Source: a virus
IMG/VR virus record: IMGVR_UViG_3300034284_003265
Coordinates: 1 to 64,000 of that record
Direction: 5' to 3' (one strand)
Length of the DNA stretch: 64,000 bases
Shown here: positions 5,447 through 19,485 of the stretch, one piece after another
Numbering within the stretch: position 1 is the stretch's first letter
How the letters are laid out: the number at the start of each line of letters is the position of its first letter
Program-made: the position numbers and the translations under genes
Notes under the pieces: model-generated
Seen by the model: the letters and a program-made list of their open reading frames with translations, nothing else
Databases searched by the model: none
Told to the model about the DNA's origin: nothing

Positions 5447-5758
5447 ATGAATACCGGCAAGATTAACAACATTTTGGCTTTGTTTGACAATTATCGTGTG
5501 TGTATTCCTAATGAGGATGCTATTGCTACTATTGTGAGCAAGAGTGATGTGGTTGGTGAATTTGATAATGAGGTATTGTATTTGGGTTGGGAGAGTGAGG
5601 ATGGTGATGAGTATTGTGTTAAGTTTAGTGAGGATGGATTGAATGGTGCTTTTGTTAGTAATGGAATGTTGGTGATGAAAGATATTGAGGGTGATGATAT
5701 TGAGATTGAGTTTCAGGAGATTAAGATGCATTATTTGGTGAGTGAAGAACTTGATTGA
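5447..5758 (+). CDS. acidic hypothetical protein
   Basis: ORF with codon usage like its neighbours. Confidence 0.7.
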   Translation: MNTGKINNILALFDNYRVCIPNEDAIATIVSKSDVVGEFDNEVLYLGWESEDGDEYCVKFSEDGLNGAFVSNGMLVMKDIEGDDIEIEFQEIKMHYLVSEELD

Positions 5759-5768
5759 ATAATAAAAA

Positions 5769-5939
5769 ATGAAAATTAATCGTGAAGAACTTGTTATCGG
5801 ATATATCGCTACTTTGGTTGCGGGTGTTTTATTTGCGCTCGGTCCAATTGGAAATGATCAAACAAAAGAAATGGCTTTGTTCTTTTTTAAACTGAGCGTT
5901 ATTCTGTTTGTTATCTTTAGGGTAACAAAAGAAAAATAG
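5769..5939 (+). CDS. small membrane protein (56 aa, not in ORF track)
   Basis: MKINREELVIGYIATLVAGVLFALGP... with two hydrophobic segments. Confidence 0.55.
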   Translation: MKINREELVIGYIATLVAGVLFALGPIGNDQTKEMALFFFKLSVILFVIFRVTKEK

Positions 5940-6175
5940 AAAAACTAAATTATTTCCACGATGAAATCTGAATCTGTTGTAATTTACCGATCTCAATTTG
6001 AAGCTGATGCTGATGCTTTTTGGCACGATAATCCTCAATATGTTATTTACTTTTTCGCTGCAATTCTAGGATTATTTCTCATTATGATGATTTACAAGAA
6101 ATTTCAGGAGAAGAATCGGAAATTTTGAAAAAAGCTGTTGACTTCTGGGTTGGTTGGTGGTAAAGTATTCCCACA

Positions 6176-6337
6176 ATGAATGAAGAACTTGTCACTTACG
6201 AGGTTGAACTGGATAGTCCCGACTTTTTTGTCAGTTTTCAAGCTGAAAAGGGTTTGAGTTTGGAGCAAATTGAGTTTCTTGCTATTCAAGAAATGACCCG
6301 AAACACTAGGGTTTGGAATGTCAAGATTGTTGAGTAA
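6176..6337 (+). CDS. small hypothetical protein (53 aa, not in ORF track)
   Basis: ccacaATG 9 nt after -10 TAAAGT. Confidence 0.7.
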   Translation: MNEELVTYEVELDSPDFFVSFQAEKGLSLEQIEFLAIQEMTRNTRVWNVKIVE

Positions 6338-6388
6338 TTAAAAAAAGCTGTTGACTTCCCCGAGGAATTCCTGTAAAGTATTTGAACA

Positions 6389-6694
6389 ATGAAACGCACT
6401 CTTTATTTTCTCCGAGATAGTGTTAGTGGTAGTTATTATAATGGTAATCTTCCAGATGGTCCCAAAAAAGACGAAGGGTTTGTTGAATTTGATTGTGCTC
6501 CTATCTTCGTTAATGAGAAGAATGTGAAAACGAAGCTCAAATATCTTGTTGAAAAATGGGTGTGGGCAGAGGGTTGTTTGCCTGTTTGGAAGAAAGAAAA
6601 GCGTTGTGTTGGTATGGATAAGATGGTGAAACAACGCAAAGACTTGCCTAACTGGGGTATTGAAATTGTGACGGTTGAACTTAGTGTAAAGTAA
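6389..6694 (+). CDS. hypothetical early protein
   Basis: behind a promoter. Confidence 0.75.
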   Translation: MKRTLYFLRDSVSGSYYNGNLPDGPKKDEGFVEFDCAPIFVNEKNVKTKLKYLVEKWVWAEGCLPVWKKEKRCVGMDKMVKQRKDLPNWGIEIVTVELSVK

Positions 6695-6703
6695 ATAAAA
6701 TCT

Positions 6704-6898
6704 ATGAATACGACTATTAGGTTTAATTTGATTAATAAGGTTGCTTCGTATGCATACAACGGATATTATGATACACAAGAATTGATGTGGGTTATTGGTA
6801 TGTTAAGTGATGTAAGAAATAGTGATGATATGCTTATCACTGAAATTGAAAAGGTAAAGAACCAATTCCCAGAGTTTGTTGAAATGTTGACTTTTTAA
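6704..6898 (+). CDS. hypothetical protein
   Basis: ORF in tandem. Confidence 0.6.
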   Translation: MNTTIRFNLINKVASYAYNGYYDTQELMWVIGMLSDVRNSDDMLITEIEKVKNQFPEFVEMLTF

Positions 6899-6955
6899 AA
6901 AATTTAAAAAAAGCTGTTGACTTCCCCCACGGAAAACCTGTAAAGTATTCTCACA

Positions 6956-7138
6956 ATGAACAAAGATAAATTCACTTGTCTAGTCTGTAAAAAACAGCTT
7001 AGTTTCAATTATGAATCAACTGTTGTTCGTAAGGCAATCAAGCCGCCGAGACAACCTCATCGTTGGATTGAATTGGGTTGCGTACACGAAGAGTGTGAAC
7101 ATTTGATTGAATTGGAACAAGATTTTTGGAAAAAGTAA
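6956..7138 (+). CDS. small putative zinc-binding protein
   Basis: CxxC...HxxC; behind a promoter. Confidence 0.65.
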   Translation: MNKDKFTCLVCKKQLSFNYESTVVRKAIKPPRQPHRWIELGCVHEECEHLIELEQDFWKK

Positions 7139-7184
7139 AAAAGCTGTTGACTTCCCCGAAGAAATCCTGTAGGATATATCCACG

Positions 7185-7373
7185 ATGAAAGAACAACCAC
7201 ACAACCCTTACGATTATCCAAACGATTATTTGAATCAATATGGAATTACTGACTCAGATGGTTTCAGGAAGTCTCAAAAAAGAAATCAAGATATCTATGA
7301 AAAAGTGTTGTTAACGGCTTACCAAAATTTGACGGGTTCAAATAAGACGAATAAAATCAAGAAAAAGGGTTGA
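7185..7373 (+). CDS. hypothetical early protein
   Basis: behind a promoter. Confidence 0.65.
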   Translation: MKEQPHNPYDYPNDYLNQYGITDSDGFRKSQKRNQDIYEKVLLTAYQNLTGSNKTNKIKKKG

Positions 7374-7407
7374 TTTCTGGGGTGATCTGGTGTAAGATAT
7401 ATCCACA

Positions 7408-7590
7408 ATGAAACTGATTGATGTTGATAACGCCGAGGTTGAAGTGGAAGATAGTTGGCAAGAGGAATGTCCCCAATGTGGTGACACGAATGTGGAATGT
7501 TTCTATGTGCCAAACTGGGCTGCAACTCGTTGTTATGACTGCCTGATTAACGAAGCGATCAAGTTTCATTATCGGGTTGAAGAAAAGTAA
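7408..7590 (+). CDS. small zinc-ribbon protein
   Basis: CPQCG...CYDC; behind a promoter. Confidence 0.7.
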   Translation: MKLIDVDNAEVEVEDSWQEECPQCGDTNVECFYVPNWAATRCYDCLINEAIKFHYRVEEK

Positions 7591-7636
7591 AAAAAGCGGT
7601 TGACTTTTTCGGGTGGGTAGGGTAAGATATTTTCAA

Positions 7637-7730
7637 GGTTGGTTGATAGTCTCCCCAGCAGAACATTTGGGAGTGTGAAGCGGTTGAAGAAACATTAGAA
7701 ATCTGTCCAGCTCACTATCAATCAACCCCA
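7637..7730 (+). ncRNA. stem-closed small RNA 1 ending in CCA
   Basis: own promoter; GGTTGGTTGATAGT pairs with ACTATCAATCAACC, followed by CCA. Confidence 0.65.
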
Positions 7731-7785
7731 AAGATTTTCTAAAAAGCGGTTGACTTTTCGGGGTGGGTAGGGTAAAGTATTTTCA

Positions 7786-7881
7786 GAGTTGAGGGGGTTG
7801 TAACGAAGAGGACTCCAAAAGACCTTGTGAAACATCAAGAGTTCCTATGGATCAAAGTCCAAGAGTAGTTCCTCTCAATTC
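7786..7881 (+). ncRNA. stem-closed small RNA 2
   Basis: own promoter; 12-bp terminal stem GAGTTGAGGGGG/TCCTCTCAATTC. Confidence 0.6.
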
Positions 7882-7935
7882 AAGATTTTAGAAAAAGTTC
7901 TTTACAAGTCAGAGAAATCTGATAAGATATTTTCA

Positions 7936-8175
7936 GTTGATGGGACCGGAAGGAATACGACTGGCAACCCTGAAACTAAAAGATTGACGATTAAGTTCAC
8001 CCGGTTTTCATCCGGGAAACCAAGAAATAGAGGGCAGTGGGTTACGATTCACTGATAAATACTTGGATGTCAATCTAGTTAGTGGAAAATAACCGGAACT
8101 AATGTGCCGGACCTCCACCGGGAAACAACGGGATCCTGAGGAGGTGAGATACGTAATCATCGTGTATCCATTAAC
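7936..8175 (+). ncRNA. stem-closed structured RNA 3 (about 240 nt)
   Basis: own promoter; GTTGATGGG/TCCATTAAC terminal stem; internal helices such as AGATTGAC/GTCAATCT and CCCGG/CCGGG. Confidence 0.6.
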
Positions 8176-8179
8176 AAAT

Positions 8180-8300
8180 TTGTTAGTTATAGATGGTATT
8201 ATATGAGTAGACGGAGAATGATGCTGATGTTACCGTCAGTAATCGACCAGTAGGGGTATAATACAGGCAGTTAAATGCGGTCATCGAAGCTAACAAACCA
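8180..8300 (+). ncRNA. stem-closed RNA 4 ending in ACCA
   Basis: TTGTTAGTT/AGCTAACAA + ACCA + ATTTT. Confidence 0.6.
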
Positions 8301-8308
8301 ATTTTATA

Positions 8309-8400
8309 ATTTGATTGAATATCTGATATTAGCTTAAGTAGAGCCGTCTGTTGAGTCAGCGAGGTGTAGTATCAAATCTACATATCAGTAAAAGTCAAAT
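8309..8400 (+). ncRNA. degenerate tRNA-like RNA inside an extra stem
   Basis: CTGATAT/ATATCAG acceptor-like stem, TAGCTTAAGTAGAGC D-arm, GTAG..CTAC T-like arm; no normal anticodon loop. Confidence 0.55.
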
Positions 8401-8474
8401 TGGTTGATGAGGTTCTAGACCAATCCAACATCTATAAAGCAGAGAAATTTGGGACTCTGCCATCAACCAAACCA
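8400..8474 (+). ncRNA. stem-closed RNA 6 ending in ACCA
   Basis: TTGGTTGATG/CATCAACCAA + ACCA + ATTTTT. Confidence 0.6.
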
Positions 8475-8482
8475 ATTTTTAT

Positions 8483-8617
8483 GCCAAGGAGAGTGCGAGT
8501 AATACGCCTCCAATCATCTGTAATAACCAATGGATGAATAGGGATAGAACACAGGACACCGGAATGGTTATCGGATCAACCTGTTGTAGATGGATAACGA
8601 ACCATCCTTTGGCTCCA
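8483..8617 (+). ncRNA. RNA 7 with 7-bp acceptor-like stem and TCCA end
   Basis: GCCAAGG/CTTTGGC + TCCA + ATTTTTT. Confidence 0.6.
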
Positions 8618-8622
8618 ATTTT

Positions 8623-8709
8623 TTGAGTAATATATACAGGCGGTCATTCTAAACTGATCTGATCAATTAGTGGTGAATGAGAGGTTCAAATCCTCTGTAT
8701 GTTATTCAA
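8623..8709 (+). ncRNA. tRNA-like RNA with long closing stem
   Basis: T-arm AGAGG-TTCAAAT-CCTCT; TTGAGTAATATA/TATGTTATTCAA stem. Confidence 0.55.
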
Positions 8710-8730
8710 TAGCAAGTAACAGATAGACTA

Positions 8731-8796
8731 TAGGTGTAGCATTCGGGCAATGCGCCGGTAATTACAGGAGACTAGGTTCAATTCCTAGACACTTAC
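8731..8796 (+). ncRNA. tRNA-like cloverleaf without a canonical anticodon loop or CCA
   Basis: TAGGTGT/ACACTTA, GCATT/AATGC, CTAGG-TTCAATT-CCTAG. Confidence 0.55.
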
Positions 8797-8910
8797 AACG
8801 AGGAACATACGGGTAATTTTAATTAATCATTCGGTGAAATCCTGAAAACTTGTTATTTTTTCACTTTTTCCGTTGACTTTTCCCAATCCGTGGGGTATAG
8901 TATTTCCACG

Positions 8911-9117
8911 ATGAACAAAGAAGACAAGAAAGCCTTCAACGAGATTTCCGCTCAAATTCGGTTGGTTAAGAAGCAGAAGGCTCAAGCTTATCGTGAAAAT
9001 CGGTTGGAGGATGCCAAGAACTTTGAACGAGAAGAGACTTACCTTCGCCAGATTTCCAACAAGGTTCAAGGTAGGGATTTGGAACTTTTTCTCGGCAAAA
9101 GCATCTTTTCCATTTGA
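8911..9117 (+). CDS. hypothetical early protein
   Basis: start set at ccacgATG 8911 behind a promoter. Confidence 0.75.
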   Translation: MNKEDKKAFNEISAQIRLVKKQKAQAYRENRLEDAKNFEREETYLRQISNKVQGRDLELFLGKSIFSI

Positions 9118-9150
9118 CTTTTCACTAAAACCTGTTAATCTATTTCCACG

Positions 9151-9315
9151 ATGAAGACTATGTGTAAGAATGTGAAGCCCGTAAATTGTGTTTGTGGGTC
9201 CAAGGCGAATGGAAAGGGACGGTTAATTGAATGCTCTTCAAGAAATTGTCTGCGGTTTGTTTCACGGCCAACGAGAGCTGAAGCCGTCATCCGATGGAAT
9301 GAAATGAACGCTTGA
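9151..9315 (+). CDS. Lar-like (restriction alleviation family) zinc-finger protein, 54 aa, not in ORF track
   Basis: CVCG...C-x4-C...AEAVIRWN pattern; behind a promoter. Confidence 0.55.
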   Translation: MKTMCKNVKPVNCVCGSKANGKGRLIECSSRNCLRFVSRPTRAEAVIRWNEMNA

Positions 9316-9361
9316 AAAAAGTTGTTGACTTTTCACTGAAACCTGTTAATCTATTTCCACG

Positions 9362-9664
9362 ATGATTCCTCCGAGCAAGACTGAAACCATCAAGACAATC
9401 GCTGACCTCAAGGCTTATTTTGTTGAGGTTGATGAATTGAACCGCTATAATGGTGTTACCGCCGTTAGAACCACAAAAGAAATTGCTACTGAGTTGTTGA
9501 TGGATAATGTGAGTATTATTCGTGGTGGTAATATCCGATACTTTCAGATTAAACATATTGGTCTGGGAGTCTATGAAGTTAAGTTACGGGATAATAACCG
9601 AGTTAATACAATTTTAGTAGAAAATTGGGAAAAACGGGTTATTAATAATACTGAACATTTCTGA
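9362..9664 (+). CDS. hypothetical early protein
   Basis: behind a promoter. Confidence 0.75.
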   Translation: MIPPSKTETIKTIADLKAYFVEVDELNRYNGVTAVRTTKEIATELLMDNVSIIRGGNIRYFQIKHIGLGVYEVKLRDNNRVNTILVENWEKRVINNTEHF

Positions 9665-9711
9665 AAAAAGCTGTTGACTTTTTATCACGGGTAACTTAAT
9701 ATATTTTTACA

Positions 9712-9873
9712 ATGAAATACAAAATGTTTGTTTGTGTTAACGGCAACAAAACTTTAATTGCTAGTTCTTATGAGTTTAAGGGGCTTGAGAAACTTATTGA
9801 GGAACTTGAAAATTTTGGTACTCTATGGGAAGTGACTGAAGATGGTGTTACGGTGATTACTAATTTTAATTAA
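9712..9873 (+). CDS. small hypothetical protein (53 aa)
   Basis: acaATG behind a promoter. Confidence 0.6.
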   Translation: MKYKMFVCVNGNKTLIASSYEFKGLEKLIEELENFGTLWEVTEDGVTVITNFN

Positions 9874-9881
9874 TTAACAAT

Positions 9882-10259
9882 ATGAATTACGTTAACTTTT
9901 TTGAACTTAAGGGTAAGACTATAACTTCAATTGATGGTAGTAACTCTGATGATAGTGACACTATTATCACTACCAGTGATGGTTCTATTTATACTTTAAC
10001 GCATATACAAGATTGTTGTGAACACGTTAGAGTGTATGGTTCTGTTGGTAATATTGATGATGTGCTTAATGTAGAAGTAATTGATGCTGAGGATACTAAT
10101 CCTATGGATAATCCTAATGCACCTGACTATAAGGCTTATGATTCTGCTACTTGGACTCAATTTAGAATTGTTACCAACAAGGGTACTTTTGAAATTTGGT
10201 GGTTGGGTGAATCAAATGGATATTACGGTGAAACTGTTTCTGTAATTAAGAACTCATAA
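9882..10259 (+). CDS. conserved phage hypothetical protein
   Basis: HIQDCCEHV...TWT...TNKG...WLGESNGYYGE motif. Confidence 0.8.
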   Translation: MNYVNFFELKGKTITSIDGSNSDDSDTIITTSDGSIYTLTHIQDCCEHVRVYGSVGNIDDVLNVEVIDAEDTNPMDNPNAPDYKAYDSATWTQFRIVTNKGTFEIWWLGESNGYYGETVSVIKNS

Positions 10260-10521
10260 TTTCTGAAATAAAATAATATCGTACTTTTATAAAAACACTA
10301 ATTATTTGCGCAGAAAGCGCCTGAAAAGTGCTTGACTCCTGAAAAATTCCTGATAAATTATAAAAATGAAAATTAAAGTTAGAAAGAGCTGGGGAGACAC
10401 CAAACCCATCACCAAGCGCATTGAGAGTGCCAAACTCTACAAGCGCAACAAGAATAAGTTCAGCTATTCAAATTACAGCTGGGGAGATCTTAACTAAATT
10501 TAAAATAATATAAATAATAAT

Positions 10522-10818
10522 ATGCCTGAAATTGATCCTGAATTGCAAGATGAACAGCTAGAAGATGCTAAATACCTGGAAGAACTTAATCACTATGTAA
10601 ACACTCTTTCAGCGCCTAGTGCAGAAGCAGTAGCTCTATATAGTGCCAAACTGTCTATGCTTGAAGATATTCATACAGAAATTAGAGCTAAATATCCTGA
10701 TTTCAAGCCTGTATATGATTCCAGTATGGATGCTGCACTCAATCAAGATCTAGGCAAATATCAAGAAATGACTTACAGCTTCTCAAGCCGTGACCTCAGC
10801 GGAAATCGCTCGGAATAA
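10522..10818 (+). CDS. hypothetical protein
   Basis: ORF. Confidence 0.65.
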   Translation: MPEIDPELQDEQLEDAKYLEELNHYVNTLSAPSAEAVALYSAKLSMLEDIHTEIRAKYPDFKPVYDSSMDAALNQDLGKYQEMTYSFSSRDLSGNRSE

Positions 10819-10869
10819 GCTAAAAAACTGTTGACTTTGGCCAAAACTAGTGTAGACTGTATCTCGTAA

Positions 10870-11442
10870 ATGAAAAAGCTCCAAAAGGAATTCACCGGTA
10901 ATTACGACAAGGTTGGCATGAACAAGTTCGTGCAAATCAAGAAAGAGAATGGTGTGGCTATCTATCAGAGGTTCAACACTGATGGTACTCCTCGTAGTTA
11001 TGAAGTGTTTATTGTGAAGGTTGTGCCTAAGGGTGCTCCTCTGCCCAATGGTAAGACTGTAGAGGAATCGTATGAACAGTATCCAGGCGCTAATGCATTT
11101 GGTAAGACTGCTTATGATTGTCGTACACTTGGTCAAGCAGAAGAACGTTTTGATCAACTTGTGATTAAGGCTAAGGATAGTGCTGAAGCCAAGGAAGAAT
11201 CTGCTAAGACTGGTATTCGTAATCGTGGTCGTCGTGGTACTAGCAAGAAGATTAAGCTGGATATGACACTCAATAAGGGTACCAAGTTTACCGCTAAGTT
11301 TCTTATGAGTGCTTTGGGAGTGACTCAGCCTGTGTTGTTTCCTATTCTCAAACAGTGGGAGAAGGAAGGTAGTATCAAGGTTAATGGTACTGTAAAGGCA
11401 GAAGGTAAAGGACGACCTGCTACTGAGTACATTGTGGTTTAA
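10870..11442 (+). CDS. protein with a putative C-terminal winged-helix DNA-binding domain
   Basis: C-terminal wing motif GKGRPATEY; basic. Confidence 0.65.
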   Translation: MKKLQKEFTGNYDKVGMNKFVQIKKENGVAIYQRFNTDGTPRSYEVFIVKVVPKGAPLPNGKTVEESYEQYPGANAFGKTAYDCRTLGQAEERFDQLVIKAKDSAEAKEESAKTGIRNRGRRGTSKKIKLDMTLNKGTKFTAKFLMSALGVTQPVLFPILKQWEKEGSIKVNGTVKAEGKGRPATEYIVV

Positions 11443-11465
11443 AGTATCACTATTAAGCATTTACC

Positions 11466-11501
11466 AACCAGATAGGGTCAAAGTACTCTATCTGGTTTTT
11501 T
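11466..11501 (+). terminator. intrinsic terminator
   Basis: ACCAGATAG/CTATCTGGT + T tract. Confidence 0.8.
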
Positions 11502-16834: not shown

Positions 16835-16910
16835 GGTGATATTGGTGTAACAGTTAGCACCTGAGTTTGTGAAACTCAAGGAACGAGGGCAGCACTCGTA
16901 TATCACCCCA
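16835..16910 (+). tRNA. tRNA-His(GUG)
   Basis: G-1 present, TT GTG AA loop, atypical T-loop GGCAGCA, CCCA end. Confidence 0.85.
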
Positions 16911-17729: not shown

Positions 17730-17855
17730 TCCAGAGTAGCTCAATGGTAGAGCATTCGGCTGTGGGCCATAAAGTATTATTTAATAGAGAGTGCAAATCT
17801 CATAAGGCCAAAGTTAACCGAAATGTTGAAGGTTCGAGCCCTTCCTCTGGAGCCA
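17730..17855 (+). tRNA. tRNA-Asn(GUU) with a 51-nt insertion in the anticodon loop
   Basis: canonical body; removing 17762-17812 restores TTCGG-CT GTT AA-CCGAA. Confidence 0.75.
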
Positions 17856-18648: not shown

Positions 18649-18690
18649 GATTATAGTTCGTTGACAATGTAAGATGAAATTTTTAATAAT

Positions 18691-18769
18691 GGAAGTGAAG
18701 CTACAATAGACGGGCATCTGACTCTTAATCAGAATATTCGTGTGGGGGCAGTACCCACCACTTCCACCA
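18691..18769 (+). tRNA. tRNA-Lys(CUU)
   Basis: TCTGA-CT CTT AA-TCAGA, T-loop GGCAGTA. Confidence 0.85.
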
Positions 18770-19068: not shown

Positions 19069-19147
19069 GGAGTCAAAGCCACAATAGACGGGCAGCCGGC
19101 TTTTAACCGGACGATTCGTGTGGGAGCATTACCCACTGGCTCCACCA
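19069..19147 (+). tRNA. tRNA-Lys(UUU)
   Basis: CCGG-CT TTT AA-CCGG, T-loop AGCATTA. Confidence 0.85.
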
Positions 19148-19485
19148 ATTTAATGGGTAACTGACCCCATAAGTGACTGCCGACCGGTACAATCGGTAAA
19201 ACACAGAGACGGCGTGGAGAGCACAGCACCAATTTTTGTTATTTGACAAAGCTAGTCAAGAAGGTTTGTATTGGGTCGCTCCTGATACTATTTCCTTGAA
19301 GATAGATACGAATATAGTTTAAGAGAAGAACGCCGGCGTGTGCTGGAGGCTTGAGGTGCAATTCCTCAATGAGTGTAGAACGTAATTTTACGTGAAATCC
19401 TTTAAAAAATCCAATTTCGTTATGTGTTTGATATAATATTCACGGTGTGAAAAGCTTCCGTGGCAAAAAATCAAATACATAATAT

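Follow-up and report, generated by a model that had tools for sequence, protein, structure and literature searches.

The stretch analysed here, called the window below, comprises the first 64,000 nucleotides of IMG/VR virus record IMGVR_UViG_3300034284_003265 and is thus the first 64 kb of a 91-kb contig. Between positions 7600 and 8862 it holds promoters, a series of folded domains and a terminator-like end, with no credible protein-coding gene. In our best explanation, to which as a whole we assign a probability of roughly 60%, a large freshwater phage of T4-like type encodes in this region a set of small non-coding RNAs that are stable and structured. The array is made up of about ten separately folded small RNAs, part of which are tRNA look-alikes. 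Its features, in order, are these:

7600 to 7628, plus strand: promoter P1 (TTGACT-N17-TAAGAT), which drives unit A and is followed by ATTTTCAAGGTTGG with no ATG
7637 to 7730, plus strand: unit A, with a 14-bp closing stem (7637-7727), then CCA; folding z-score -2.45
7750 to 7778, plus strand: promoter P2, which drives unit B; same family as about 20 early promoters
7786 to 7881, plus strand: unit B, with a 12-bp closing stem; 5 distinct homologues
7901 to 7928, plus strand: promoter P3 (TTTACA-N16-TAAGAT), which drives the train from C0 to I
7935 to 7977, plus strand: C0, a 5' hairpin module at the predicted transcription start
7981 to 8076, plus strand: unit C1, with a 9-bp closing stem and a conserved core that includes a T-loop-like hairpin
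8078 to 8175, plus strand: unit C2, with a 9-bp closing stem; an optional cassette
8179 to 8300, plus strand: unit D, 122 nt with 36 pairs, ending in ACCA; invariant, unpaired internal loop GAGUAG / CAGUAGGGG
8309 to 8400 and 8401 to 8474, plus strand: units E and F, always adjacent; F ends in ACCA here; 7 distinct copies
8483 to 8617, plus strand: unit G, with a 7-bp acceptor-like stem contiguous with a 5-bp hairpin (12-bp stack), ending in UCCA
8624 to 8708, plus strand: unit H, a tRNA look-alike with a 12-13-bp acceptor-like stem, a GGUUCAAAUCC T arm and no D arm
8709 to 8862, plus strand: I domain, in which a long-range helix (8709-8717 with 8848-8856) encloses a cloverleaf-like mimic (8731-8797) and a 3' hairpin

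The longest open reading frames (ORFs) on the plus strand between 7600 and 8860 would encode 34, 45 (from a TTG start) and 30 amino acids, and none is credible through 8862; the short plus-strand ORFs of the array span unit borders or lack their start codon in relatives. The original prediction, made from the sequence alone, had held that three early promoters here drive no ORF, and this was confirmed: ATTTTCA and RGTTGA lie downstream of them, and an ATG is absent. The promoters belong to the family AAAAAG-TTGAC-N17-TAnnnT, with about 20 other members in the first 14 kb, and the P3 promoter cassette also occurs in the related loci L002, L003, L024, L025, L028 and L029. Those other copies, between 800 and 14000 of the window, each stand ahead of one small ORF (50-100 amino acids) whose ATG lies 9-10 nt past the -10 box without a Shine-Dalgarno sequence, marking them as near-leaderless early-type genes. 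Early expression of the array, as had been proposed, is what we infer from its promoters, because they share a sigma70-like class with these surrounding genes. At the far end, the 8848-8856 side of the closing helix and a U-run at 8857-8862 form a terminator-like structure, which is likely the array terminator. The next gene, at 8911, has its own promoter (8873-8901) and an ATG 9 nt past the -10 box, like its neighbours.

Unit borders were drawn by minimum free energy folding with a limited pairing span; unlimited global folding gave spurious long-range closure. The region had been described as nine back-to-back units with paired ends. The borders of B, D, E, F, G and H were recovered, and the parse was corrected to 11 folding domains: the former unit at 7936-8175 is three domains (C0, C1 and C2), and the former unit at 8731-8796, here 8731-8797, sits within a larger closed domain at 8709-8856. 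Folding of single units gave z-scores against dinucleotide shuffles of -1.1 to -3.7, with six of nine at or below -2.4. The description of the interiors as something other than cloverleaves holds only in part. The I domain's cloverleaf-like mimic has a 7-bp acceptor stem, a GGUUCAAAUCC T arm and a short 'anticodon' arm (5-6-nt loop). In H, a T arm is joined by an anticodon-like arm whose 7-nt loop, CUGAUCA, is invariant. That loop offers U33 and a possible GAU anticodon, but has C at position 37. A 3' CCA is absent from both H and I.

Evidence that these folds are maintained comes from about 30 related arrays, collected from IMG/VR and freshwater metagenomes with the upstream Zn-ribbon ORF, the upstream helicase and one conserved motif as queries. 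Consensus folds were made on distinct sequences, with 500 shuffles and 3' partners slid by one to three columns as controls, and gave the following counts:

D: 11 distinct sequences, 36 predicted pairs, 15 compensatory; reached in 0 of 500 shuffles
H: 10 distinct sequences, 25 predicted pairs, 12 compensatory; reached in 0 of 500 shuffles
I domain: 14 distinct sequences, 41 predicted pairs, 17 compensatory; reached in 0 of 500 shuffles
G: 7 distinct sequences, 37 predicted pairs, 8 compensatory; shuffles not counted
E/F: 7 distinct sequences, 43 predicted pairs, 6 compensatory; shuffles not counted

Paired cells in D, H and I amounted to 96-97%, as against 27-52% with slid partners. In I, compensatory changes affect, among others, three pairs in the long-range closing helix and another three in the 7-bp acceptor of the embedded cloverleaf; one entire helix of D is rewritten in L091. 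In C1, helix swaps are visible by eye (CCAAG/CUUGG to GUGAG/CUCAC and to GCAAG/CUUGC). The terminal stems of E and F are invariant across copies and so carry no information on covariation, and homologues of A and C2 were too few for this set. Compensatory covariation is therefore strong in D, H and I, and present to some degree in G, E/F and C1, which bears out the claim that these are real, structured non-coding RNAs. Model R1, for H, finds 18 copies at 76-105 bits and reaches 18 bits on the minus strand; model R2, for D, detects 13 copies at 114-144 bits. Because of these R1 scores, and because conserved G-U pairs are numerous on the plus strand, the fold belongs to the plus-strand transcript. 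Since compensatory changes keep the structure while the unpaired motifs CUGAUCA (H) and GAGUAG/CAGUAGGGG (D) stay invariant, selection on the RNA itself is implied.

The array is also conspicuous in environmental RNA. Parts of the stretch occur in 21 metatranscriptome runs from many studies, and four RNA runs (X1, X2, X4 and X8), of which X1 and X2 are river metatranscriptomes, were mapped by contigs on 5500-11500. Summed contig depths in X1 and X2 were as follows:

7912 to 8112: 1316 in X1, 140 in X2
8113 to 8313: 1103 in X1, 162 in X2
8314 to 8514: 42 in X1, 18 in X2
8515 to 8715: 1108 in X1, 290 in X2
8716 to 8916: 4490 in X1, 663 in X2
flanking gene bins (5500-7900 and 8917-11500): 0-22 in X1, 0-4 in X2

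X4 and X8 give the same pattern at low depth. Depth over the array thus exceeds that over flanking genes 100- to 1000-fold, in a measure that is crude, takes one number per contig, sums related phages and cannot show RNA ends. DNA carry-over does not account for the excess, because the flanks are covered by low-depth contigs that differ little, which shows the phage or close kin to be present in the runs. The transcription expected of stable non-coding RNAs is therefore supported by the RNA libraries. Some RNA contigs skip from 8077 to 8177, dropping C2 exactly, or from 7977 to 8176, joining C0 to D; these skips represent cassette variants and not RNA processing, because the same variants occur in the DNA of relatives.

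Four units (A, D, F and G) end in NCCA, and CCAATTTT follows directly after D, F and G, as the original prediction had counted them; as RNA, these three ends read CCAAUUUU. The spacer was said to be the one used between real tRNAs in this genome, and indeed all 22 tRNAs that ARAGORN finds in the window have a CCA end followed by (A)TTT(T). Whether tRNA-style ends act as processing signals, as was also proposed, can be affirmed only in part. The tRNA spacer AAUUUU, the retention in G of a 7-bp acceptor, 5-bp hairpin and NCCA, and the GGUUCAAAUCC T arms of H and I are in keeping with such a role. On the other side, CCA is no general requirement, because some copies of D and F have lost it, and A, B and C0 need no 5' processing, because they begin at what would be the transcription start: their stems begin about 7-9 nt past the -10 box, where neighbouring genes have their ATG. 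In G, NCCA and AUUU are kept in 7 of 7 copies, a 72%-identical one in G003 (L011) included, and G has G1-C72, C2-G71 and U73-CCA in common with phage tRNA-Thr genes. With a 12-bp tRNA 'top half' and NCCA in every copy, G is a plausible substrate for RNase P and the CCA enzyme.

Across the roughly 30 phage contigs, subsets and orders of units vary and homology stops at unit borders. The array of L002 reads C0-C1-(another GCCA-ending unit)-D-G-H-I, with that other unit in the place of C2. In L003, which lacks C2, C1 carries a 115-nt insertion and is followed by D-E-F-(another stem-closed unit)-H-I; L029 has C1-G-x-E-F-(two T-arm units)-...-H-I, and in L100 C0 is joined straight to D. C0 precedes differing downstream units. 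Two positions are constant: I directly follows H in every array with H, and the I domain closes every array seen, including a second array type in G003 in which G is directly followed by I. At least 15 further unit families, counted by eye, occur in relatives and are missing from the window. Unit A is 99% identical in L089 (2620-2713, minus strand), where the helicase is only 55% identical and A lies within a train instead of behind its own promoter, suggesting that one RNA cassette was transferred horizontally not long ago. The identity with L089 stops inside the terminal stem of A. Taken together, these comparisons show units that behave as independent cassettes, with single units moving between distant lineages.

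Two further observations were made in the related arrays. A conserved promoter-proximal RNA of about 170 nt with an invariant GCCGAGCAUGGGG, which opens with the C0 hairpin module, occurs in many relatives and not in the window (L024:8175-8345, L025:10205-10365, L005:6735-6895, L003:6504-6660, L006:2951-3135 and L089:~2920-2715 on the minus strand). In L025, a lysine-rich ORF of about 240 amino acids (10390-11130, minus strand) is inserted between two array units; it may be a homing-endonuclease-like mobile gene, like segB in the T4 tRNA region.

The junction between H and I deserves separate consideration. RNA contigs from X2 and X4 connect 8852 back to 8620, that is, the 3' end of I to the 5' flank of H, with the letters ...CCUGAAAACUUG followed immediately by UUUUUGAGUAAU, and X1 and X2 have matching loose ends before 8619. 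The X4 junction contig, at 263 nt, equals a 233-nt cycle plus a 30-nt (k-1) overlap, which suggests a circular path, because a cycle plus a k-1 overlap is how an isolated circle appears in a de Bruijn graph. On one strand, the H stem (8624-8708) runs directly into the I closing helix (8709-8717 with 8848-8856), and an H-I RNA would therefore have its 5' and 3' ends abutting as at a nick. The junction may reflect a circular or concatenated H-I RNA. It may come from a tandem DNA copy in an unsampled phage; the order I-then-H was found in DNA 0 times among the related loci collected and 0 times in IMG/VR (two pattern scans). Or it may be a template-switching artefact, in which case the join would still show where a discrete 233-nt RNA begins and ends. 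In two complete relatives, ORFs match an RNA ligase domain of the Rnl2 family (PF09414): with 83 bits at G003:174263-174760 (L107), 2.7 kb downstream of the second RNA array there (G, then the I domain), and with 25 bits, below the family cut-off, at G002:287747-288181 (L108).

A bolder and tentative proposal, which we think rather unlikely to be right in full, is that H-I is one 233-nt RNA of two tRNA-like modules, covalently circularised or present as head-to-tail concatemers, in which the H stem stacks on the I helix and the resulting nick could be sealed by an Rnl2-type ligase. In this proposal the array as a whole would serve as a toolbox of RNAs that bind proteins and pass horizontally between phages, an RNA counterpart of the small early proteins for host takeover encoded around it. 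If true, a circular H-I would reveal a new way for circular RNA to arise in bacteria.

For the array as a gene set for stable RNAs, we envisage the following course. Host RNA polymerase would initiate at the three strong sigma70-type promoters. P1 and P2 would each yield one RNA with paired ends (A and B), its 5' end being the transcription start, and P3 a precursor of about 930 nt (C0-C1-C2-D-EF-G-H-I), stopping at the I-closing helix and U-run. Host tRNA-maturation enzymes would then cut the precursor in the AAUUUU spacers, as between the phage's real tRNAs. RNase E would act in the A/U spacers and RNase P at the stems that resemble acceptors, and 3' exonucleases would halt at the closing stem or NCCA. 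The products, of 70-230 nt, would accumulate far above neighbouring mRNAs. In the weakest and most speculative step, the RNAs probably serve, early in infection, as ligands for proteins of the host or the phage; G, H and I, as mimics of the acceptor/T-arm half of tRNA, would be bound by enzymes that handle tRNA or by defence nucleases that target it.

Several observations weigh against parts of this account. The NCCA end is AACA in 3 of 11 copies of D and is lost in 4 of 7 copies of F. D, C1, C2 and E have nothing tRNA-like apart from their paired ends, and the acceptor-like stem of H has 12-13 bp rather than 7. Units A and B are covered only at low depth in the four RNA runs, from which low cover we draw no conclusion, and the coarseness of contig depth described above applies to the whole of the expression evidence. 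A binding or titrating function is a guess. The nearest analogues, T4 RNAC and RNAD, have no known function themselves and were classed as late RNAs (PMC9697503).

Other explanations account for part of the same evidence. The units could be selfish RNA-gene cassettes, spread by recombination or endonuclease-assisted homing without benefit to the phage. Their variable presence and order between relatives, the near-identical unit A in a distant lineage and the reverse-strand ORF that breaks the array in L025 all suit such a reading, as does the homing endonuclease SegB in the T4 tRNA/rnaC/rnaD region (PMC2330249). We nevertheless consider it quite unlikely, given that compensatory changes and invariant unpaired motifs imply selection on the RNA, that the promoters are strong and dedicated and RNA levels very high, and that H-I stands at the end of every array with H. 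A graveyard of decaying tRNA genes, left from a former cluster, might explain the T arms of H and I, the 17.3 bits that I scores with the Rfam tRNA model, and the CCA and AUUUU spacers as in tRNA arrays. This idea is largely refuted and retains a very small probability: most units lack a cloverleaf, compensatory change maintains the structures even in relatives of only 65-72% identity, the loops do not vary, the RNA is abundant, and the genome's real tRNAs score 42-72 bits.

The back-to-back arrangement, the terminal inverted repeats of 60-150 bp and the cassette-like rearrangement would also fit elements that act as DNA (recombination sites, an origin or a packaging signal) and not as RNA genes. 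This seems highly improbable, since G-U pairs are tolerated on the plus strand only, R1 gives 18 bits on the minus as against 76-105 on the plus strand, the array is framed by promoters and a terminator, its RNA depth is 100-1000 times as high as over the flanks, and no integrase is adjacent. Finally, the array lies directly upstream of the same-strand gene at 8911 and could in principle be a long structured 5' leader or regulatory region of that gene, a notion to which we give almost no credence: the array terminates at the helix and U-run (8848-8862), the 8911 gene has its own promoter (8873-8901), and downstream genes vary between relatives. A gene set for small, stable RNAs thus remains our preferred reading.

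The nearest relatives of this phage are uncultured freshwater phages of 230-296 kb. A blastn search with 7300-9100 against 50,697 phage records gave zero matches, and tblastn of the neighbouring helicase against the phage collection gave matches that were all below 25% identity, leaving it without a cultured relative there. As a query for related loci, the downstream ORF (8911-9114) found none. Pfam searches of the flanking small proteins and ten larger ones returned nothing that indicates RNA handling, and RtcB was not found in the contig or in two complete relatives.

Elsewhere in the window, tRNA-shaped genes with T loops GGGCAGCAC and GGGGCAGUACCC instead of UUCRANY lie within tRNA arrays at 16835-16906, 18690-18768 and ~19070-19150; ARAGORN and Rfam miss them, and one resembles a tRNA-His gene whose acceptor stem has 8 bp and whose anticodon is GUG. 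At 17730-17852, an Rfam tRNA match of 123 nt (56.7 bits) without an ARAGORN call suggests a tRNA gene with an insertion or intron. A phage tmRNA (27454-27838; Rfam, 113 bits; tag AEDNVVSYDFSYDEVVALAA) lies just past the second tRNA array.

Our findings bear on how large phages equip themselves early in infection. They suggest that RNAs, besides small proteins, are a major mobile part of these phages' early repertoire for host takeover or counter-defence. Dozens of distinct, well-folded RNA families, all outside Rfam, appear structurally selected and dominate the phage signal in environmental RNA. The alignments supply several new RNA families for structure work, and the pattern of unit presence and absence could be used to connect individual RNAs with hosts or defence systems.

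Comparison with known RNA families places the array apart. A cmscan of 6500-10000 against Rfam 15 (E<=10) returned chance-level matches only, far under gathering scores, so that no unit of the array reaches the gathering score of any known family; the tRNA match of I (8730-8797 against RF00005, 17.3 bits) compares with a gathering score of 29, and ARAGORN finds no tRNA in 7600-8862. We found no description of such RNA arrays in the literature. A survey of IMG/VR published in 2023 predicted phage RNA motifs in the thousands, anonymous and in part tRNA-like (PMC10690425); arrays, tandem units or cassette behaviour do not appear in its main text, and its lists may include individual units.

Of other readings, integron attC sites were dropped (no integrase, a misfit to the core-site motif, and evidence at the RNA level), as were CRISPR-mimic and ToxI-like repeats, because the units are mutually unrelated. 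The YrlA (Y-RNA-like) RNAs of bacteria and phages are tRNA mimics bound by Ro/Rsr, in which a closing stem of the 5' and 3' ends is combined with a tRNA-like T-arm module. A YrlA/Ro system was excluded here, with no Rfam match and no TROVE domain (PF05731) in the window's contig (G000) or in the complete relatives G002 and G003. The polycistronic tRNA operons of large phages use the same CCA and AUUU(U) spacer and head-to-tail units, but the units of the array are not tRNAs (0 ARAGORN calls; at best 17.3 bits, against 42-72 for the window's real tRNAs).

The closest parallel in layout is found in T4, whose rnaC (species 1, 139 nt) and rnaD (species 2, 119 nt) are also phage non-coding RNAs, placed head to tail after tRNA-Arg behind A/U tRNA-type spacers. 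Like units H and G, rnaC combines a T arm (GGUUCGAAUCC) beside its 3' end with a large non-tRNA interior. Models R1 and R2 had no match in the T4 tRNA/rnaC/rnaD region (66000-76000, E<=1), and the likeness, as far as these models detect, is one of architecture only and not of homology. Species 1 and 2 were found in the 1970s, and a function for them is still lacking. T4 has two such RNAs, at the end of its tRNA operon, whereas the present array has about ten (roughly five times as many), 8 kb from the tRNA arrays, and differs further in having its own three early-type promoters, its own terminator and shuffling of its cassettes. This lineage thus offers a far richer natural experiment on phage small stable RNAs than T4 does.

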